Positions 11,827 to 20,903 of a stretch of 25,709 nucleotides of DNA are shown here, piece after piece; position 1 is the first letter of the stretch; each line of letters opens with the position of its first letter. The DNA comes from a virus (Duplodnaviria; Heunggongvirae; Uroviricota; Caudoviricetes). The translations under genes were made by a program, and so were the position numbers. The DNA lies in the IMG/VR virus record IMGVR_UViG_2547132488_000024, positions 1 through 25,709 of that record; one strand, written 5' to 3'. The notes under the pieces were generated by a model, which saw only the letters and a program-made list of their open reading frames with translations, did no database searches and was not told the DNA's origin.

Positions 11827-13578
11827 ATGATTCAGGACGCTTTTGTGCGCCAGCGTGCGCGGCAACTTTACTGGCAGGGTTATCCGCCCGCAGAAATATC
11901 ACGTCTGATGGGAATAAACCCGAACACGATTTATGCGTGGAAAAAACGTGACCAGTGGGATGAAACGCCACCCGTGCAGCGTGTCACGCAGTCCATCGAT
12001 GCGCGCCTCATTCAGCTTACTGAAAAACAGAATAAAACAGGCGGTGACTTTAAGGAAATAGACCTGCTGACCCGGCAGCTTAAAAAGCTGCATGATGGCC
12101 AGCCGGATGTGATGGCCGCAGGAAAGAAAGGCCGGGCGAAAAAACTCAAAAATCATTTCACGCCGGAACAGATTTCCGCACTGCGGGAAAAAATCATCAG
12201 CAGGCTGGAGTGGCATCAGCGGGGCTGGTTTGACTCCCTGACACTTTGCAGGGAAGCCGGGATACGTAACAGGATGATCCTGAAATCCCGACAGATTGGG
12301 GCGACCTGGTATTTTGCACAGGAAGCTCTGCTGATGGCGCTGCGTGACGATGTGGCGCAACCTTACCAGCGTAACCAGATTTTTTTGTCTGCGTCGCGTC
12401 GTCAGGCGTTCCAGTTTAAAAGCATTATTCAGAAGGCCGCGGCTGAAGTTGATGTGGAGCTGAAAGGGGGCGATAAAATCATCCTCTCCAACGGCGCAGA
12501 GCTGCATTTTCTCGGCACTTCTGCTGCGTCGGCACAGTCCTATACGGGCAATTTTTATTTTGATGAATTTTTCTGGGTCAGTCGCTTTGCTGAACTGCGC
12601 AAGGTGGCTGGCGCTATGGCAACCCTCAGCGGACTGCGGCGCACCTACTTCTCCACGCCATCCACCGAAACGCACGAGGCATACGCCTACTGGAACGGCG
12701 ACCGCTGGAATGAGAAAAAGGCCACGCATAAACGCCAGCGTTTTTCTGTGGACTGGAAAACGCTGCATAACGGGCTTATCTGCCCTGACCGGACGTGGCG
12801 GCAAATTGTCACGCTGGAAGATGTGGTTAATTACGGCTGGAAACACACCGATATCGACGAAATTCGTGATGAAAACACCGAAGACGAGTTCCTCAATCTC
12901 TATATGTGTGAGTTTGTCCGCGAAGGGGAATCGGCATTTAACCTGAATATCCTGATTGGCTGCGGTGTTGACGGATACGACGACTGGAAAGACTGGAAAC
13001 CTTTTGCTCCCCGCCCGATGGGGAATCGTCCGGTATGGATTGGGTATGACGCAAACGGCAGCAGTGGCAACGGCGACAGCGGCGCTGTGTCCGTGGTGGT
13101 TCCTCCGGCTGTTCCTGGTGGCCGTTTTCGAACGGTGGAGACGCGACGCGTTCAGGGGCTGGAGTTTGAAGAACAGGCCAGAGTCATTGAAGAGTTCACG
13201 TGTCGCTACAACGTGGAACACATCGGCATTGATGTGACGGGCGGGAACGGGGAGGCTGTTTATCAGATAGTGAAACGGTTTTTCCCTGCTGCTATTCCGT
13301 ACACCTTCACGCTGTCATCAAAACGGTCGCTGGTACTGAAAATGCTGCAAATAATGCGTGCCGGGCGGTGGGAATACGATCGCGCCGAACGCGAGCTGGT
13401 CGCGGCCTTTAACGCCGTGCGTAAGGTGAAAACACCGGGCGGCTTTATCACTTACGAAACGGACCGAGCGAGGGGGATCAGCCACGGCGACCTTGCGTGG
13501 GCAACCATGCTTGCTGTCATTAACGAACCGATTGGCGGCGAAGGAGAAAACGAGCGTTTCACGGTTATGGAGTTCTGA
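11827..13578 (+). CDS. P: Terminase ATPase (large) subunit P, 583 aa
   Basis: Synteny, size, divergent from O. Confidence 0.9.
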   Translation: MIQDAFVRQRARQLYWQGYPPAEISRLMGINPNTIYAWKKRDQWDETPPVQRVTQSIDARLIQLTEKQNKTGGDFKEIDLLTRQLKKLHDGQPDVMAAGKKGRAKKLKNHFTPEQISALREKIISRLEWHQRGWFDSLTLCREAGIRNRMILKSRQIGATWYFAQEALLMALRDDVAQPYQRNQIFLSASRRQAFQFKSIIQKAAAEVDVELKGGDKIILSNGAELHFLGTSAASAQSYTGNFYFDEFFWVSRFAELRKVAGAMATLSGLRRTYFSTPSTETHEAYAYWNGDRWNEKKATHKRQRFSVDWKTLHNGLICPDRTWRQIVTLEDVVNYGWKHTDIDEIRDENTEDEFLNLYMCEFVREGESAFNLNILIGCGVDGYDDWKDWKPFAPRPMGNRPVWIGYDANGSSGNGDSGAVSVVVPPAVPGGRFRTVETRRVQGLEFEEQARVIEEFTCRYNVEHIGIDVTGGNGEAVYQIVKRFFPAAIPYTFTLSSKRSLVLKMLQIMRAGRWEYDRAERELVAAFNAVRKVKTPGGFITYETDRARGISHGDLAWATMLAVINEPIGGEGENERFTVMEF

Positions 13579-14624
13579 TGAGCAGAAAAAATAAAAAAGT
13601 GCGCATGAGTTCACGCATTGATCTCGCTGATGCGCTCAGGAAAGAATCATCGCTCAGTGCATTCACATTTGATGGTCCTTATCGCCTGACCGGGCATGAC
13701 CTGCTGGACAATATGTACTGTGCTGATAACGGGCGGTGGTATGAAACCCCGGTGGACTGGTACGGTCTGGCAAGAGCTGCCCGGCAAACGTCCTGGCATC
13801 AGTCTGCGCTTTACTTTAAGCGCAATGTATTACTCGGTTGCTACATCCCGCACCCGCTGCTTTCCCGGCAGGATTTCTCGGCGCTGGCGCTGGACTGGTT
13901 TGTGTTCGGTAACGCATTTCTTGAGCTTCGAAGCAATATGCTCGGCGAACCGCTTAAATTACGGCACGCACTGGCGAAATACATGCGACGCGGAAGCGAT
14001 CTTGAATCATGGTGGTATGTGCAGGATGGCAAGGACGCGTTCCAGTTTCGCCCTGGCAAAGTGTGCCACCTGATGAATCCGGATATTAACCAGGAAATTT
14101 ACGGCATGCCGGAATATCTTGGCGCATTACTCTCGGCCAGCCTGTCTCATTCGGCGGACATGTTCAGAAAACTGTACTACGACAATGGATCCCACGCCGG
14201 GTGCATCATCTACATCGGTGCAGCGCAGGTAAACCGCGAAAGCATGGACTCCCTGAAAGAAACGTTACAGGGTGCACGTGGTGGTGGTGCGTTTAAAAAT
14301 GTGCTCATTCATGCGCCCAACGGGGGCAAAGAAGGGGTGCAAATTTTGCCGTTCCAGCAGATCACCGCAAAAGATGAGTTCATGAATGTTAAGGCGGCAT
14401 CCCGTGATGATGTGCTGGCTGCGCACCGCGTTCCGCCGCAACTGATGGGGGCGATGCCGGGCGAAAAAAGTGCGTTTGGTGATGTGGAGAAGGCCGCGCG
14501 GGTTTACGCAATTAACGAGCTGATGCCCGTCATGGAGGCCATGAAGCACATCAATGACTGGCTTGGCGAAGATGTGATCCGCTTTAACCCTTACGCACTG
14601 TTAGACACCCAGCCCACATCCTGA
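13578..14624 (+). CDS. Q: Portal protein Q, 348 aa; start overlaps P stop (TGATG)
   Basis: Synteny and size. Confidence 0.9.
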   Translation: MSRKNKKVRMSSRIDLADALRKESSLSAFTFDGPYRLTGHDLLDNMYCADNGRWYETPVDWYGLARAARQTSWHQSALYFKRNVLLGCYIPHPLLSRQDFSALALDWFVFGNAFLELRSNMLGEPLKLRHALAKYMRRGSDLESWWYVQDGKDAFQFRPGKVCHLMNPDINQEIYGMPEYLGALLSASLSHSADMFRKLYYDNGSHAGCIIYIGAAQVNRESMDSLKETLQGARGGGAFKNVLIHAPNGGKEGVQILPFQQITAKDEFMNVKAASRDDVLAAHRVPPQLMGAMPGEKSAFGDVEKAARVYAINELMPVMEAMKHINDWLGEDVIRFNPYALLDTQPTS

Positions 14625-14650
14625 CGCGCTTCGCTTGTCTGCTGCTTCGC

Positions 14651-14673
14651 CGGGGCATAAAAAATTTATGCCC
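14651..14673. terminator. Perfect 10-bp stem hairpin GGGGCATAAA-AAA-TTTATGCCCC just downstream of Q; terminator or cos-proximal structure
   Basis: Perfect inverted repeat; no strong T-run. Confidence 0.4.
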
Positions 14674-14960
14674 CGACTCTCCAGCTCCTGTATCAGTCAG
14701 ATAATTTCACGACGCTTTCCTGCTGATTGCCATCATCGACAGTCAGACTCTTACGCAATCCCACCGCGTTGACTGCATGTTCTCGCCGTCTCAGTGCGAT
14801 TTTGACGGCCTTACCTTTCACCCCATTAAATCAAAAGCCCTCACGTCTTTTTCATGCTCAGCGTGAGAAATACGGCCATTCTGTCGTGTCTCTGCGACAT
14901 CGTTCAGGGAATGCTATTTACCCCCTGAAACGCGGGCTGTTCCCCCGTCACCTGCGCGCA

Positions 14961-15078
14961 GAAAAAACGCGTTTTTTTGTGCACGTACGGATCCTTGACG
15001 GATCCAGCCACCACGCGGGCCGGAAGTACAAAAAGTCGTTCAAAAAAATTGTGCAAACTTGTGCACTATCGTGCAAAC
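14961..15078. promoter_or_regulatory. Cluster of phased repeats: 16-bp palindrome AAAAAACGCGTTTTTT (14962-14977), direct repeats ACGGATCC (14987, 14998; 11-bp phase), GTGCAAAC (15051, 15071; 20-bp phase); candidate packaging/cos or operator region
   Basis: Exact repeats read directly; lies between portal gene and accessory genes where P2 has cos. Confidence 0.35.
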
Positions 15079-15102
15079 AAAAAAAGCGCCTTATCGGCGC
15101 TT
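15078..15102 (-). terminator. Intrinsic terminator for the minus-strand 89-aa gene (stem AAGCGCC/GGCGCTT, then T7 on minus strand)
   Basis: Hairpin plus A-run on plus strand directly after the stop at 15111. Confidence 0.6.
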
Positions 15103-15110
15103 CAAAAGTA

Positions 15111-15380
15111 TCAATTGTTGCTGTGTATTAATCGCCAACCACGAACATATGCTTCATAGGCATCTCTGTGCCTTACAGTTCCAGCCTGGCTAAACGGAAT
15201 GTTAGCTAAAACTAAATCATTCTGAGCCATAGCGCGTCCTTCAAGCGCATCTTTTATGCCTAGCTCAAAAGCACAGGCAGCGCATTTGTGCCGACCTTCT
15301 TGTCCTTGATATTCAGGGAGAGACAGAAATGTTGGATTATAACGATGAGGGTTCTTGCAAATACCTGTTTTAGCCCGCAC
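15111..15380 (-). CDS. Hypothetical protein, 89 aa (GTG start; possible internal ATG starts), Cys/His-containing, AT-rich codons; orphan accessory gene
   Basis: ORF with its own downstream terminator; no family recognised. Confidence 0.4.
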   Translation of the reverse strand: MRAKTGICKNPHRYNPTFLSLPEYQGQEGRHKCAACAFELGIKDALEGRAMAQNDLVLANIPFSQAGTVRHRDAYEAYVRGWRLIHSNN

Positions 15381-15403
15381 TTTATTTACCTCATAGGAAA
15401 AAT

Positions 15404-15490
15404 ATGCGTGCCTTTACAGAGGTGCGTGTAAGCAATAAAATATACGACGCACATTTTGATTTACTTCGGAAGGCACGCATATCAGGTTAA
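15404..15490 (+). CDS. Candidate small ORF (28 aa, MRAFTEVRVSNKIYDAHFDLLRKARISG) with RBS AGGA; start and end embedded in a 13-bp perfect inverted repeat; may instead be a structured sRNA
   Basis: RBS spacing 5 nt, followed by strong terminator; IR 15402-15414 / 15470-15482. Confidence 0.25.
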   Translation: MRAFTEVRVSNKIYDAHFDLLRKARISG

Positions 15491-15510
15491 GTGAGTCCGA
15501 CCGAGTTTTA

Positions 15511-15544
15511 CGCCCCAATAGTTGCTGCTATTGGGGCGTTTTGC
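15511..15544 (+). terminator. Rho-independent terminator (11-bp perfect stem CGCCCCAATAG/CTATTGGGGCG, loop TTGCTG, then TTTT)
   Basis: Perfect stem followed by T-run on plus strand. Confidence 0.7.
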
Positions 15545-15744
15545 ATGGACAATGCCGCGCAATTATCTTGTCGCTCACAATGCGAACGATCTTACAAAAA
15601 GGCACATTACTGTCAAGATAATTGATCGTTTTAATCGATAGATAATAGACAATCTATTTGTTTAACAGATCGATTATTGAAGTAAGTGTGCCAGATGGAA
15701 TGATACTGTCTCTATAAACGTGAGCATTTTTCGCGCAGATGCTT

Positions 15745-16056
15745 TTACTCAGGAAATAACGCCCGGATATTCCCAGCCATCTGGCTGGTTATCTTAGCCA
15801 CTGGTGCAGACTGTGCTTCAAACTTTTTTGAGCTGATTTGTGTCACAGGTAATATCTCATCATCAGCCCATGCGGCCAGTCGGTAAGCCTCTGCCGGATT
15901 CGTCTTCAGAAGTGCCAGCCCGGCCAGAAAAGCCACGCGTTGGCCGCTTTTGCGGGCTTCTGGTGTAAGGCTGTCCAGCCAGGCGCATGCTTCTCCTTCG
16001 TTCTTGACGGCAGCTGGCTTCAGATAGAAACTTATTCTTCTGGTTGGTGTCGTCAT
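15745..16056 (-). CDS. parR: ParR-like centromere-binding adaptor, 103 aa (RHH-type N-terminus similar to R1 ParR)
   Basis: Immediately downstream of parM with RBS AAGGAG; ISFYLKP...LDSL...AFLAGLALL resembles R1 ParR from memory. Confidence 0.6.
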   Translation of the reverse strand: MTTPTRRISFYLKPAAVKNEGEACAWLDSLTPEARKSGQRVAFLAGLALLKTNPAEAYRLAAWADDEILPVTQISSKKFEAQSAPVAKITSQMAGNIRALFPE

Positions 16057-16060
16057 TGGT

Positions 16061-17020
16061 TTACTCCTTGTTCATTGCGTACAGCCCATTAACCAGAGCA
16101 AATTGTGGCACCCCGTCCGCGATGAAAGTCGCATTAACTCCGCAGGCTTCGCGGATAGCGGGTGCCACAATCTCCGCCCCGCCACCGACAACCATCACCC
16201 GCCCGTAACCCGAAAAAACCGCCAGAGCGCGGATCACGCGTTGTTTCAGTGTTTCTTCCTTTTCACGAATAATCGCCATCAGGCTGGCGTAATGCGCGTC
16301 ATTGTGGATGTGCTGGCGCAACCAGGCTTCATCATGGCGATGTTCGATAATGGTATTGGCGATGTGGTGACTGGTGCGCATACCGTTAGTGGCCATCACC
16401 GACAGTACGGCATCGGCCATCAGAGAAACGCCTACGTGTGGATCGCAAAACACCTGGCTGATACCTGCCAGTTGCCCCTGAACCTTTGCCACATCCAGCG
16501 TGGTTCCGCCCAAATCCACAATCAGCAGGGATTCAAACGGACTCATGTCAGCCAGTGCCTTAAAGCCAGCCGGAATGGATTCAGGCATAACCCGCACGTT
16601 ACGGATAGTGAATGCTTCGCCGTTCTGGTACTCCACCGGGCGCATAACGTTCGCTTTTTTGCGGTTGATGTTGGCCATGTCCGGCTGTGCGTTTGTGTCG
16701 AAATACTCGCTCAGTGGCAGGGTGACAACCACATCCACCTCCCGTGGCGTGATGCCTGATTTGACCAGCGCGTGATGAATGGCAATGACATTCACATCGC
16801 TGTACTGGTATTGCGTGTCGGTCGTCTGGACAAAGCGATCGCTGACCGGATCAAAACCATAGCGCACGCCATCAAGCATGTAGTTCGCGGGCTGCGTGCC
16901 ACCGAACGGCGCAGACCATTCCGACTTGAAGCTGTTCGGGCTGATGGCGTTGCGGCGTTCGCCGTTCTCAGTCCATGCCAGCTTGATGTTGGTGGAGCCG
17001 TCGTCGATACAAATTCTCAT
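16061..17020 (-). CDS. parM: ParM/StbA-like actin-family partition ATPase, 319 aa
   Basis: IDDGSTNIKLAW, DLGGTTLD and VVGGGAEI phosphate/adenosine motifs; collinear similarity to R1 ParM from memory. Confidence 0.8.
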   Translation of the reverse strand: MRICIDDGSTNIKLAWTENGERRNAISPNSFKSEWSAPFGGTQPANYMLDGVRYGFDPVSDRFVQTTDTQYQYSDVNVIAIHHALVKSGITPREVDVVVTLPLSEYFDTNAQPDMANINRKKANVMRPVEYQNGEAFTIRNVRVMPESIPAGFKALADMSPFESLLIVDLGGTTLDVAKVQGQLAGISQVFCDPHVGVSLMADAVLSVMATNGMRTSHHIANTIIEHRHDEAWLRQHIHNDAHYASLMAIIREKEETLKQRVIRALAVFSGYGRVMVVGGGAEIVAPAIREACGVNATFIADGVPQFALVNGLYAMNKE

Positions 17021-17050
17021 CTCGATTTTCCTTATGTTGATTAATTAATC

Positions 17051-17160
17051 GTTTACGGGATTTTTAAATCCCGTTTTCGCCTGTTTTGTGCGCGCTTCAT
17101 ATATCGCGGCGCGTTTTTTGCTCATTTACGGGATTTGTGAATCCCGTTTCTGTCTGTTTT
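17051..17160. repeat. Two ~40-bp direct repeats 73 bp apart, each with a 20-bp palindrome (ACGGGATTTTTAAATCCCGT at 17055-17074; ACGGGATTTGTGAATCCCGT at 17128-17147); candidate parC-like centromere/operator; second copy lies in the A gene 3' end
   Basis: Exact sequence; first copy sits about 35 bp upstream of parM start over the likely promoter. Confidence 0.55.
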
Positions 17161-19892
17161 TTGTTTCCACTGGTCAGGCTACCCCGCAGCAGGTCTGCTT
17201 TGCGGCGGGCGCGTTCAGTGGTTTCACTGATTCTCTGTGCGTGCTCTGCGTCACGAATGGCGCGCAGCATGTCAGAAAGCACGGTAACGGGGGTTTTCAT
17301 GGTGTTCTGGTCCTGCTGAAGTGTGGATGCCAGGCGTGCGGCGGCTTCGGGGTCTGATGCCCCGAGCTGTGCCAGATAGCTGGCGACCGGGTTATGGCGG
17401 ATCTCCGTGCTGCTTACGCCGTGATTACGGCTCAGGCGCTGCCAGAGCTGCGTGATTCGGCTGTCCGGGCGGGTATCCGGTTTGCGTACAATTTCAAATC
17501 CCTGCGGTGCAATGATGCTGCCGTCAACGTACAGACTGCCGCCCCGTAACAGGTGCTGCATCTGCTGTTCACCGATATGCAGGCCGAGAGATTCAGCAGA
17601 CTCCCGCCATTCTTTAGCGAGTAACTCGTGGTTATCAGGCAAAGGCCGCGGCTGTTTGCGGCTCTGTGTCCAGCTCTGCATTTCATCACTGCTGTTTTTT
17701 ACCTGTTTGTCACGAAGCGAACGCATCAGCGCCCGGCGCTCGTGTCGTTTCAGTGAGCGCATCCATTCATTTACTTCAACGCCGCCAGGGAGCTGTGGCC
17801 ACGGTGCTGGCTGTTCTGTCCCGTTGTTGCCTGTTTCCTGTACGCGGGGACAGTTATTGCCACGAGTCCAAGGGGCGGCAGGGCCGCCCTGAAGGTCAAA
17901 ACCATTTTCGCGGGCGCTGTCTTCCGCTTCCGGTTTACGTTTTACCAGCTTCCAGTTATCCGGATGCGTGCACACACGGGAGGATTCCCCGATGAGTGGT
18001 GACCAGATCCCGTAAATCTGTACGCTCTGTTCGCCGTAATCGTTCAGCTCATCGGCGAGGTCGTAGGCGGTGCGAATCAGGTAGTCTTTACGTGGAACAA
18101 GTACGCCGCCCTGTTTTTCAATGTAGGAGGCAAAACACCCGGCATCGGCGGCAGCGAGTACCGCATCCATTGCGTCATTCTTCAGCCGTTGCGGGCCTTC
18201 CGGGTTGCGTGCCATCTGGCTGGCAAGGCGGCGGAGTTCACGCCACACCTGACGGGAGGGAATGCCAAAGAACTGGAACTGGCGGACCCGGTGAAGGCGC
18301 GCCCAGCCGATGGCGCGTTCCACGCTCTCGGCCATTGATTTTCCTGTTTCGTGGTCAACGCGTGGCTTGCCCGTTTTCGGGTCGATGCCATCCACGGCGC
18401 GGCTGTCCAGGTTCTTTCCGATGTAGGTGGCGATGTAGCTGGTTGGTGTGCCTTTTGAGCCGTCGACATACTCCACCTTAAAGCGTGGGGTAATATCATC
18501 ACCCAGCTCGTGGCGGTCTTCCTGAATGGCAATATCGCGGGTGATGGCCACGATGCTGTCGATTTCTTCCGGATGAGCAAAGACCATCATGTGCCAGTGC
18601 ACGGTGCCGTCATGGTGAGGCTCCACCGTGCGGATGCCATACCAGCGCAGGCCGTCGCGGTTCAGTTTTTTGCGGACCGCCGCAAAAAACGTGTTAACCA
18701 GGTAATCGCTGGAGTCGCGCATAGTGGCCCCGTTCCATTTGGGGTTCGGATGACCGTTCTCTGTTGTGGCGTGGTATTTTGACGGGCAGGTGACAGTCAG
18801 AAACACCGCTTTGTCGCCACGGGCTTCGGCCAGAAGTTCCAGCCCCTTCATGGTGGCCATCATTTCTGCCTTACGGTGAACCGGGTTACTTACTCCCGCG
18901 TAATACACTGTCTCAAGATCAATCGTGAACCCGTCTTCGTTTTCCAGCATGAAACTTTTCAGGAAATCGCGTGTTTTCTCGCGCTGTGCGCGAAACTCGC
19001 TTAACGCGTCCTGGCTCAGATAGGGTGATGTTTTTCTGGAAACCAGACAGGCGGCGCGGAGTTGTTCTTCTCTCCACTCGCAACGTAACAGCCACAGTTT
19101 GCGTTTCCACCAGTCCGCACAGGTCAGGCGAAGGATTGCGCCCGGTAACAGTTCCGTATCCGGATCGCTCTTGTTCAGAGCTTCGTAATATGGCGGCATG
19201 GCGTGCAGGTGTAACGCCATGCGGGCCAGCATCTGATACGCCTTCAGCGTTACATCCATGGTCAGTTCGCCATCGGTCGCGCCAAAGCCATCGCAGAGTT
19301 TTTCGAAGGTGCTGCTGAACATCGCCGCCGTCATGGTGGCCAGCGTCTGTATCTGGTGTTTGTTGAGCTGCGGCAGGTAAAGCAAATCGTCCAGGCGTTC
19401 GCGTCCGGCAAGGGAGCGATAACCCGGTGTCAGCCAGCGCCCGTCAGTGCGATCCAGACGTTCGAATATTTTGCGCAGGGTTCCGCGTGCATAGCGTTCT
19501 GCCTGCCAGCTCTTTTTGCCTTTCCGGCGATCGGCTTCCTGTTTTTTGCGCAGGAAAGAGAGGTGGCGAATAAGCGGATCGCGCAGATAGGACGGCAGCA
19601 GGCGCAGCGAGGCCATGGCTTCATCCACCGCGCCGCGTGCCTGTTTTTTGGCGTCTCCTGCCAGTGTGATGGTTTTGTCCTGTTTTTCCTGTGCGTCCAG
19701 GCTTTTATTAATCAGGTTGCCCAGCGGCGTGGCGGAGAACGCCGCATCAGCCATTTCCTGGCGGCGCTCGTTCTCTATCCGGTAGGCACCCAGCCAGGAG
19801 GAAAGCGCGGATTCAGGAGCGGGGATCCCCGTTCCTTCACGCCCCACTGCGTGGCGCGGTTGTTGCCAGTCCCTGATGTACTCTGCCGTCAT
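17097..19892 (-). CDS. A: Rolling-circle replication initiator (P2 gpA-like), HUH motif HWHMMVFAH and catalytic tyrosine pair YIATYIGK; 931 aa from first ATG, longer than P2 A
   Basis: HUH and Y-x3-Y motifs; synteny. Confidence 0.85.
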   Translation of the reverse strand: MTAEYIRDWQQPRHAVGREGTGIPAPESALSSWLGAYRIENERRQEMADAAFSATPLGNLINKSLDAQEKQDKTITLAGDAKKQARGAVDEAMASLRLLPSYLRDPLIRHLSFLRKKQEADRRKGKKSWQAERYARGTLRKIFERLDRTDGRWLTPGYRSLAGRERLDDLLYLPQLNKHQIQTLATMTAAMFSSTFEKLCDGFGATDGELTMDVTLKAYQMLARMALHLHAMPPYYEALNKSDPDTELLPGAILRLTCADWWKRKLWLLRCEWREEQLRAACLVSRKTSPYLSQDALSEFRAQREKTRDFLKSFMLENEDGFTIDLETVYYAGVSNPVHRKAEMMATMKGLELLAEARGDKAVFLTVTCPSKYHATTENGHPNPKWNGATMRDSSDYLVNTFFAAVRKKLNRDGLRWYGIRTVEPHHDGTVHWHMMVFAHPEEIDSIVAITRDIAIQEDRHELGDDITPRFKVEYVDGSKGTPTSYIATYIGKNLDSRAVDGIDPKTGKPRVDHETGKSMAESVERAIGWARLHRVRQFQFFGIPSRQVWRELRRLASQMARNPEGPQRLKNDAMDAVLAAADAGCFASYIEKQGGVLVPRKDYLIRTAYDLADELNDYGEQSVQIYGIWSPLIGESSRVCTHPDNWKLVKRKPEAEDSARENGFDLQGGPAAPWTRGNNCPRVQETGNNGTEQPAPWPQLPGGVEVNEWMRSLKRHERRALMRSLRDKQVKNSSDEMQSWTQSRKQPRPLPDNHELLAKEWRESAESLGLHIGEQQMQHLLRGGSLYVDGSIIAPQGFEIVRKPDTRPDSRITQLWQRLSRNHGVSSTEIRHNPVASYLAQLGASDPEAAARLASTLQQDQNTMKTPVTVLSDMLRAIRDAEHAQRISETTERARRKADLLRGSLTSGNKKQTETGFTNPVNEQKTRRDI

Positions 19893-19898
19893 AGTGAT

Positions 19899-20264
19899 TT
19901 ACTTCGTCATGCCATTCAGGGTGTCGCGGCAGACTGTAGCCAGCCGCTGAATTTCCAGCACGGTGTCTTCTGTGTCGGCATGGCGATGTGTGATGCGGAT
20001 GCTGTCGGCAATCACATCGACGATTGCAGAGGATGGGCGCTGGTAAATGCCAATAACGTACGGGGTGCCACCTTCAATGCGGTAAAGCCTGTAATTTCCC
20101 TCGTGGCTGTCAATCATGTAGCGACCATCAATAACAATCTTTCCGTCAGCGAGCTGCGGTACAGGCAGGGATTTCAGGTACATGTCATAACGTTCACGCA
20201 CGCGAACGGCAAGATCACGCTCTGTGTTGAGCAGGTATTCAAGAAAGTCGTTGGCGAGAATCAT
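19899..20264 (-). CDS. Hypothetical early protein, 121 aa, immediately upstream of A
   Basis: ORF tightly coupled to A; no family recognised. Confidence 0.55.
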   Translation of the reverse strand: MILANDFLEYLLNTERDLAVRVRERYDMYLKSLPVPQLADGKIVIDGRYMIDSHEGNYRLYRIEGGTPYVIGIYQRPSSAIVDVIADSIRITHRHADTEDTVLEIQRLATVCRDTLNGMTK

Positions 20265-20567: not shown

Positions 20568-20744
20568 GATATGTGGCCTCTTGTAGTAAGTTGTGAAAAC
20601 TCACCATCCAGAGGTTCCAAGCTCGGGGTGGTGAGACGTACAGGGTTGGAACTACCGGCTACAAGAGATCCCGGCCCGACCGAAATCGGCCCCGTACGCC
20701 CCACCATAATTCGTGTGCGAAAAAGACGTGGCAATACAGTACGC

Positions 20745-20767
20745 ACAAAAAAACCGCTGGCGCGGTT
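20745..20767 (-). terminator. Weak intrinsic terminator on minus strand (AACCGC-TGGC-GCGGTT, then U7)
   Basis: Short GC stem followed by A-run on plus strand. Confidence 0.3.
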
Positions 20768-20903
20768 GTGCGCTCTTGTAGTCTGCGGGGTTCCAATCCC
20801 GGCACCCGTTTTATGAGGTGCAGCGGAAATGTAACCTGACTGATTGCGGCATGGCAAGCGGTTTTTTTGTGAGAACGGCATACTAAAAAATCCTGATGCT
20901 GCT

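Follow-up and report, generated by a model that had tools for sequence, protein, structure and literature searches.

The window analysed here, a stretch of 25,709 nucleotides of DNA, belongs to a P2-family prophage of the P88 type (Xuanwuvirus) of Escherichia coli. Between its cos-proximal DNA and the parR gene lies a cargo cassette with a gene on the minus strand encoding a protein of 89 amino acids (aa), and upstream of this gene a hairpin-rich stretch (15395-15544). In a sequence-only reading this stretch had been taken for a small plus-strand transcription unit of its own, with an open reading frame (ORF) of 28 codons led by a ribosome binding site (RBS), enclosed in an inverted repeat and followed by a terminator. 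It is probably instead the conserved control region of a small mobile gene rather than a gene for a tiny peptide, and the opposite strand most likely also makes an antisense RNA of about 100 bases. We give a probability of roughly 65% to the reading that this is the control region of a prophage cargo gene with an antisense RNA in its leader. In what follows, sense refers to the strand of the 89-aa gene (minus) and antisense to the plus strand. The features are collected in Table 1.

Table 1. Features of the cassette and of its surroundings, by position in the window
Feature	Position	Strand	Remarks
Terminase	11827-13578	+	
Portal	13578-14624	+	
Cos-proximal DNA	about 14625-15090	none	
Terminator-like hairpin downstream of the 89-aa gene	15083-15103	-	8-bp stem, then TTTTTGTTT
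Swappable cargo cassette	about 15095-15744	none	about 650 bp; breakpoints relative to related phages
89-aa gene	15111-15380	-	ORF; GTG start (15378-15380); RefSeq WP_001390707.1, 'hypothetical protein'
Predicted structured 5' leader of the 89-aa mRNA	15381-15582	-	about 200 nt; architecture common to 40 cassettes
Shine-Dalgarno (SD) sequence GAGGU of the 89-aa gene	15388-15392	-	7 nt before GTG
Hairpin-rich stretch	15395-15544		as delimited in the sequence-only reading
Hairpin 3 of the sense leader	15402-15482	-	13-bp repeat enclosing a nested 6-bp repeat and the antisense promoter
28-codon ORF (MRAFTEVRVSNKIYDAHFDLLRKARISG)	15404-15490	+	judged spurious
Antisense promoter	15413-15441	+	-35 TTTACA 15413-15418, 17-nt spacer, -10 TAAAAT 15436-15441; 10/12 consensus match
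Predicted cis-antisense small RNA	about 15447-15544	+	about 98 nt; from promoter and terminator
Hairpin 2 (ACGCCCCAATAG / CTATTGGGGCGT)	15510-15521 / 15528-15539 (element to 15544)	+	12-bp stem, 6-nt loop, then TTTT
AT-rich stretch	15545-15744	none	
11-bp perfect inverted repeat (CAATTATCTTG / CAAGATAATTG)	15560-15570 / 15614-15624	none	brackets the sense promoter
Sense promoter TTGACA-16 nt-TAAGAT	15589-15616 (15616→15589)	-	10/12 consensus match; predicted start near 15582
parR	15745-16056	-	
parM	16061-17020	-	
gpA (replication gene)	17097-19892	-	

The cargo cassette and its 89-aa gene

Homology of the window to the phages P88, Shae_phiSM, Chuche and PhiR44_2 ends at 15075-15102 and sets in again exactly at 15745, where parR has its stop codon, and quite different genes occupy the same gap in these four phages. 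The stretch from about 15095 to 15744 is therefore a swappable cassette. A hotspot of P2-like phages sits between gpQ/cos and gpA (Rousset et al. 2022, PMC9122126), and at the corresponding place, flanked by conserved backbone, the window likewise has its variable insert. The earlier assignment of the locus to the exclusion-gene slot is thus borne out by the homology breaks, the region being the P2 old/tin exclusion hotspot. In the lineage of the window, parM and parR stand between the cargo slot and gpA. Among 5426 complete E. coli genomes, 166 (about 3%) carry the cassette, with hardly any variation. A 180-nt unit of it is at least 97.8% identical across every phage and E. coli match, and the plasmids searched gave no DNA match to this unit. 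Two interrupted or extended copies were encountered: E. coli CH4793 (H14) has an IS1 element inside the stretch aligned to 15100-15750 of the window, and an IMG/VR copy (locus L012) has a 21-bp insertion at 15727.

The 89-aa protein is a member of PHROG 3941 (E = 6e-49) and has no significant match in Pfam, NCBIfam or PADLOC. For a few members of its family, the Pfam profiles RMF and DUF2799 appeared with E values of about 0.01-0.04 and were judged non-significant. A single-sequence protein search returned two near-identical proteins only. A profile search was used instead and gave at least 1484 related protein clusters, all annotated 'hypothetical'. The 89-aa protein is small, hydrophilic and rich in Cys and His, and the invariant residues of its family include C8, H12, C33 and C36 plus the motif SQAG.VRHKD. 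An AlphaFold prediction for the family, run with database proteins, reached a mean predicted local distance difference test (pLDDT) of 80 and showed no fold match in the PDB or in BFVD. The literature searched on the protein accession and on a small DpnII-associated regulator describes neither the protein nor the RNA.

Homologues with 45-63% identity occupy other 'moron' slots. In a P22-like Salmonella phage the gene lies downstream of cI (cI-N region), in a Providencia phage between Q and the lysis genes (lambdoid Q-lysis region), and many Enterobacterales and Orbales prophages carry it as well. Judging from these positions, the gene is mobile and carries its upstream leader along into unrelated slots. 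In Firmicutes, Spirochaetes, Endomicrobia and Bacteroidota, the gene is found inside or beside DpnII-type GATC restriction-modification operons with Pfam DpnII, MethyltransfD12 and N6_N4_Mtase genes (loci L048, L051, L053-L058 and L139-L146). In one Flavobacteriaceae genome (L058) the family protein is fused to a DndB-like protein. The copy in the window is an orphan, its cassette including neither a restriction enzyme nor a methyltransferase. Given the operon setting and a threefold enrichment of GATC in the enteric orphan cassettes (171 sites seen vs about 57 expected), the 89-aa protein has some connection with the methylation or restriction of GATC.

The leader and the predicted promoters on its two strands

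As the 180-nt unit is so uniform within E. coli, these copies yield no covariation. Loci anchored on the protein were therefore compared, and the 330 nt upstream of the start codon were taken from 52 distinct loci. A single leader architecture is present in 40 distinct proteobacterial sequences, whose sources are Providencia/Proteus, Yersinia, Rahnella, a Salmonella phage, Gilliamella and others. In gene orientation it begins with a GATC, a -35 element (TTGAAG or TTGACA), 16-18 nt and a -10 element (TAnnAT, often overlapping another GATC). A small hairpin, a purine run (ATAGGGAAAG) and a GC-rich hairpin with a 6-nt loop follow, then an A-rich spacer and a second hairpin, usually with a GATC (TTGAGATCTC or TGTGATCACC). 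The plan ends with an invariant TGTAAAG, about 30 nt usually folding over the SD and the start codon, and the gene itself.

The window fits this plan throughout. The GC-rich hairpin (hairpin 2) is the element previously called a terminator, the second hairpin (hairpin 3) is formed by the 13-bp repeat that was thought to lock the 28-codon ORF, and TGTAAAG lies at 15421→15415. The hairpin-rich stretch thus occupies the middle of the leader conserved upstream of the minus-strand gene. It had been described as a separate unit, divergent from that gene; it in fact overlaps the leader, and the sense promoter is located further out. The closest related cassettes (L091, L094 and L095) share 75-77% DNA identity with the window from about 15687 to 15511 and then diverge. 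Cassettes of the L095 type occur in only 7 E. coli genomes, none of which is a model strain with transcriptome maps.

The position of the sense promoter is kept in the homologous cassettes. In the window a GATC (15588-15591) overlaps its -10, another (15624-15627) lies 7 nt upstream of its -35, and a third is found at 15668-15671. A GATC just upstream of the sense -35 is present in all homologous cassettes but one. The promoter is also bracketed by the 11-bp repeat, one arm of which overlaps the -35 while the other falls at about +13 to +23. Since only one arm would be transcribed, this repeat may serve as an operator at the level of the DNA. The closest related cassettes (L091-L095) lack it, and it looks like a pair of operator half-sites specific to the lineage of the window.

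In the minimum free energy fold of the full leader, the hairpin of the 13-bp repeat extends to pair the SD region (pairing probability of the SD 0.9-0.98). In most relatives, the SD and the start codon are masked by a short local hairpin just after GUAAAG. The predicted folds of the window and of most relatives therefore have a masked translation start, as in type I toxin mRNAs. The start-sequestering fold proposed earlier for the 28-codon ORF is in this sense retained as a prediction, but for the 89-aa gene on the other strand.

The antisense promoter is the sole plus-strand promoter-like site found in a scan of 14600-16100. All 40 distinct proteobacterial leaders have TTTAC[AT]-N17-TAnnnT opposite the gene, 33-46 nt from the start codon. 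The -10 hexamer takes ten forms (TAAAAT, TAGACT, TACTCT, TAATCT, TACGAT, TAGAAT, TACAAT, TAGTAT, TAAACT and TAACCT), and the spacers between -35 and -10 diverge freely. In an alignment of 25 sequences, the invariant columns are GTAAAG and A....TA, the latter corresponding to T6, A2 and T1 of the -10. Invariance limited to the -35 and to the key positions of the -10 is what a sigma-70 promoter would show and an RNA motif would not, and the spacing lies within the 16-18 nt of such promoters. The window has its own version of this site. The -10 of the closest relatives (TACGAT) has decayed to TACGAC and has been shifted by an insertion to 24 nt from the -35, and a new, stronger TAAAAT stands exactly 17 nt from the -35.

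Taking the RNA start about 7 nt past the -10 (about 15447) and its end at the GC-rich hairpin and its U-run gives the predicted antisense RNA of Table 1. In the relatives its predicted length is 68-82 nt (median 73). The predicted fold of the RNA has an unpaired 5' end of about 19 nt and the terminator hairpin. The RNA would be complementary throughout to the leader, with the GC-rich hairpin and the 5' repeat arm inside the paired segment and the SD outside it. A small plus-strand RNA ending at the hairpin of 15510-15544 is thus likely, in agreement with the sequence-only reading, but its start is expected near 15447 and not before the ORF. An Rfam scan, which that reading had proposed, brought no family to threshold in this region. 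The best scores here were 19-22 bits (Spot 42, sar, ctRNA_pGA1 and others) vs gathering thresholds of 43-80 bits, the two top scorers (ctRNA_pGA1 and sar) matching the terminator hairpin only, and nothing was found in the leaders of 20 related loci.

One possible trans target was seen within the window. Plus-strand positions 15452-15468 are complementary to 19890-19906 on the minus strand (12 contiguous nt, 15/17 overall), a segment spanning the stop of an upstream ORF and the start codon of the replication gene A. By chance, a window would contain about 0.27 12-mers of this kind, and the match did not stand out in a duplex-energy scan. The matching segment falls in the insertion specific to the cassette lineage of the window, where the antisense RNA might additionally target gpA.

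Hairpins, covariation and the small ORFs

On the plus strand, a U-run comes directly after the GC-rich stem-loop of hairpin 2, which makes this hairpin a borderline intrinsic terminator (-20.6 kcal/mol for the hairpin alone). It is predicted to end the antisense RNA and to be part of the sense leader as well. The terminator previously announced 28 nt after the 13-bp repeat with an 11-bp stem is thus present as a hairpin, but its stem has 12 bp and starts 27 nt past the repeat. Among the cassettes, the 8 nt past the stem contain a mean of 4.05 T on the antisense strand vs 0.72 on the sense strand, so that the hairpin can terminate only the antisense transcript.

A comparison of 21 hairpin segments from these loci supports the helix. 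Standard pairs are formed in 82.5% of the cells vs 62.2% in shuffles, and both sides have changed in 9 of the 12 pairs. Double changes amount to 48 cells where 13.8 are expected (none of 500 shuffles reaches the observed value), and the covariation score is 0.439 compared with at most 0.11 for slid controls. One-sided changes of the G-U type are absent altogether, which fits a helix needed on both strands, for the leader as well as for the antisense RNA. The loop occurs in both orientations among near-identical cassettes, as CGGCAA or TTGCCG (L004 vs L102) and in a second case as CGCTAA or TTGGCG (L119/L122 vs L121/L123/L132). Such inversions leave the sense and antisense loops complementary to each other. 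The covariance check on homologous loci called for earlier therefore succeeds for hairpin 2, whereas the 13-bp repeat is found only in near-identical E. coli copies.

The 13-bp repeat itself is perfect, as had been stated, with arms ATATGCGTGCCTT (15402-15414) and AAGGCACGCATAT (15470-15482) 55 nt apart, and the nested 6-bp repeat is also as described (GTGCGT at 15422-15427 pairing with ACGCAC at 15447-15452). A Markov-1 random sequence of 25.7 kb is expected to contain only 0.04 perfect inverted repeats of this size (13 bp or more, within 100 bp), and three inverted repeats of at least 11 bp are clustered in 15402-15624. The strong folding that had been noted is confirmed: the plus strand of the 150-nt stretch reaches -56.9 kcal/mol vs -36.1 ± 3.9 for dinucleotide shuffles (z = -5.35, none of 200 as good). 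With its left arm upstream of the antisense -35, the repeat has both arms together in the minus-strand leader only. Relatives have a hairpin of another sequence, usually with a GATC, at the same position, and hairpin 3 of the window has about 27 extra nt compared with L095. From these comparisons, the 13-bp repeat would be a lineage-specific enlargement of a hairpin position common to the family.

Two small ORFs overlap this repeat. The 28-codon ORF is present with its RBS (AGGA 15395-15398, ATG 15404, TAA 15488-15490). It starts 9 nt upstream of the conserved antisense -35, and the small ORFs of related cassettes, including L091-L095, differ from it in sequence, frame and length. It was rejected as a gene for these reasons and because its 28-aa product has no family match. 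On the minus strand an ORF of 29 codons (ATG 15480, TGA 15392-15394) overlaps the SD and was considered for a mok-like translational coupling; it is not conserved either and was rejected. Both are regarded as by-products, the repeat arms happening to hold ATATGCG on both strands.

Further repeats and RNA elements were recorded elsewhere in the window. The cos-proximal DNA has short direct repeats at 15045-15078 (ATTGTGCAAAC / ATCGTGCAAAC) and at 14651-14675 (AAAATTGTGC / AAACTTGTGC) as well as a perfect 11-bp hairpin directly past the stop of the portal gene. Diverged 42-bp copies lie at 17049-17090, in the parM-gpA spacer, and at 17122-17163, in the 3' end of gpA. They cross-match the corresponding stretches of related phages (81-86% identity) and are a candidate parC centromere/promoter array of the ParM/ParR partition system of the prophage. 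Two Rfam matches are above threshold, a C4 antisense RNA (20624-20711, minus strand, 79 bits) and isrK (20747-20821, minus strand, 71 bits). Their arrangement resembles P1/P7-type immunity regions, and a 13-14 bp inverted repeat (about 20745 / 20857) lies near them.

Weighing the explanations and comparison with known systems

The favoured explanation can be set out as follows. A sigma-70 promoter on the minus strand, with its Dam (GATC) sites, would transcribe the leader together with the 89-aa gene, and the leader would fold so that the translation start is masked. Within the leader, the plus-strand promoter would fire towards the sense promoter and produce the cis-antisense RNA, which would stop at the GC-rich hairpin and its U-run. 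The 13-bp repeat would form in the minus-strand leader only, its right arm lying within the segment covered by the antisense RNA. Pairing between antisense RNA and leader may then set the level of the protein and keep its expression low or conditional, either through RNase III cleavage of the duplex or through refolding of the translation start region, and transcriptional interference between the face-to-face promoters possibly adds to this effect. The outcome could be negative (as in hok/sok, IS10 and EcoRI) or positive, and Dam methylation of the promoter GATCs may provide a second layer of control.

The model put forward in the sequence-only reading, a plus-strand mini-mRNA of about 150 nt whose start is sequestered by the 13-bp repeat, can be given very little credence. 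It has in its favour an AGGA 5 nt before the ATG, a frame open for 28 codons, a strong hairpin with TTTT downstream and the very stable plus-strand fold, but the last is explained equally by the minus-strand leader. No comparable promoter-like site was found on the plus strand upstream of 15395, and the site conserved in the family lies inside the ORF, which implies an RNA that starts past the left repeat arm and lacks the RBS and the ATG. The reading frame is not kept among relatives, and the peptide is basic rather than hydrophobic. More weight, although still little, goes to the possibility that the hairpins act in the minus-strand mRNA alone, as protein-binding, temperature-sensing or ligand-sensing elements that mask the SD, the apparent antisense promoter being a conserved motif UGUAAAG bound as RNA or by a protein. 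The conserved structure of the leader and the translation start masked in most predicted folds would agree with this, as would the weak antisense U-tract of many lineages. However, hexamer positions that stay invariant exactly 17 nt from TTTAC[AT] while the rest varies are a sigma-70 signature, the window has re-created a correctly spaced -10 after an insertion, and the predicted length of the antisense RNA is kept within narrow bounds.

Slightly less probable again is an explanation at the level of the DNA, in which a methylation-dependent control of the cassette acts through its repeats and GATC clusters, as operators or as sites prone to form cruciforms, with the 89-aa protein or Dam-sensitive host factors such as SeqA as candidate binders. 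It may coexist with the RNA model. The GATC enrichment next to or within the sense promoter speaks for it, as do the 11-bp repeat around this promoter, the link of the protein to GATC-specific DpnII operons, and hairpin 2 with its inverted loops. On the other hand, the stem sequences of hairpin 2 vary freely while the conserved residues of the protein stay, which would be unexpected for the binding site of a conserved protein. Moreover, the 13-bp repeat of the window is devoid of GATC, and no DNA-binding fold can be assigned to the 89-aa protein.

Several points weigh against a leader with an antisense RNA. The promoters on both strands, their start sites and the terminator are all predicted features. 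Hairpin 2 has a short U-tract (UUUU in the window, in many relatives UUUCC or UCCCUAUA), and a simple terminator scan (requiring 5 T in 8) passed over it, because just 4 T follow the 12-bp stem. The covariation test was applied to trimmed segments with a structure specified by hand; RNAalifold on a plain MAFFT alignment of the leaders gave no consensus pairs, the hairpin arms being out of register. A palindrome acting at the level of the DNA would account equally well for the lack of G-U changes and for the loop inversions. The 13-bp repeat, confined to its near-identical copies, has no covariation support of its own. Lastly, folding the leader with the antisense-covered segment blocked revealed no clear on/off switch at the SD.

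The logic of the control region with its predicted antisense RNA is that of known cis-antisense modules, yet membership of each known system fails on at least one defining feature. In hok/sok, a gene of mobile elements has a long, highly folded leader and a masked translation start, and the leader is overlapped by a short cis-antisense RNA that is made constitutively and stops at a terminator hairpin. The cassette resembles this in its predicted folded leader, masked start and short cis-antisense RNA with terminator hairpin, but its antisense RNA overlaps neither the RBS nor a conserved upstream reading frame. A likeness to type I toxin mRNAs had been suggested for the plus strand; the locus does resemble antisense-controlled modules, but through the 89-aa gene, the 28-aa ORF being basic and not conserved. 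Type I toxins (loci reviewed in PMC4147584 and PMC8309996) are usually shorter than 60 aa, hydrophobic and membrane-active, which applies neither to the hydrophilic 89-aa protein nor to the 28-aa peptide. There is no sequence or Rfam relationship between the cassette and hok/sok or other type I loci.

The RNA-IN/RNA-OUT pair of IS10 combines a Dam-sensitive promoter (pIN) with a stable stem-loop antisense RNA of about 70 nt that covers the RBS. The cassette shares, as predictions, the face-to-face promoters, the overlapping transcripts and the stable stem-loop antisense RNA, and it has a Dam site within the sense promoter, where it lies over the -10. It differs in that the overlap comprises about 100 nt of leader, that the antisense RNA would not pair with the RBS (it would begin some 55 nt upstream of the SD), and that the gene regulated is not a transposase. 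In the EcoRI restriction-modification system, small antisense RNAs from reverse promoters act as regulators (Mruk et al. 2011, PMC3141266; reviewed in PMC3874152). The cassette protein belongs likewise to a family linked to restriction-modification, as an accessory of DpnII-type operons. The EcoRI antisense RNAs lie within the restriction gene, whereas the cassette copy is an orphan, and no sequence relationship connects them. RalR/RalA of the rac prophage sets a precedent for a type I-like module with a protein that acts on DNA (Guo et al. 2014, PMC4041452). It resembles the cassette in its small, prophage-borne, non-membrane protein under the control of a small RNA, which in the cassette is predicted. 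Unlike the predicted antisense RNA, however, RalA is trans-encoded with 16 nt of complementarity, and RalR is unrelated in sequence. Finally, the cassette shares with the old/tin cargo of P2 (PMC9122126) the slot between cos/gpQ and the replication gene and the cassette-like replacement. Typical defence systems are much larger than its 650 bp, and none of the PADLOC defence models matches it.

For annotation, the locus calls for caution, since what reads as an RBS-led ORF with a 'terminator' may be no more than a by-product of a structured leader encoded on the opposite strand. On a broader and tentative view, to which we give less than even odds, the cassette is an undescribed and widely mobile module linked to GATC/Dam methylation. 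An accessory gene of DpnII operons may have been captured as an orphan by enterobacterial temperate phages, where its control may fall to GATC-bearing promoters and to a conserved pair of sense and antisense RNAs of a new kind. Such a module could have a non-membrane effector and work as a toxin of type I-like character or in exclusion, or it could sense the GATC methylation state. Should the antisense RNA predicted here be real, it and the sense leader would form a conserved pair absent from Rfam, found in prophages of enterobacterial and related genera, at least eight in number. The protein family may be an unrecognised restriction-modification regulator, methylation sensor or exclusion factor. 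As a possible minimal cargo, the cassette indicates that the P2 hotspot can hold a very small load of a single, tightly regulated gene of a kind missed by current catalogues of defence systems.

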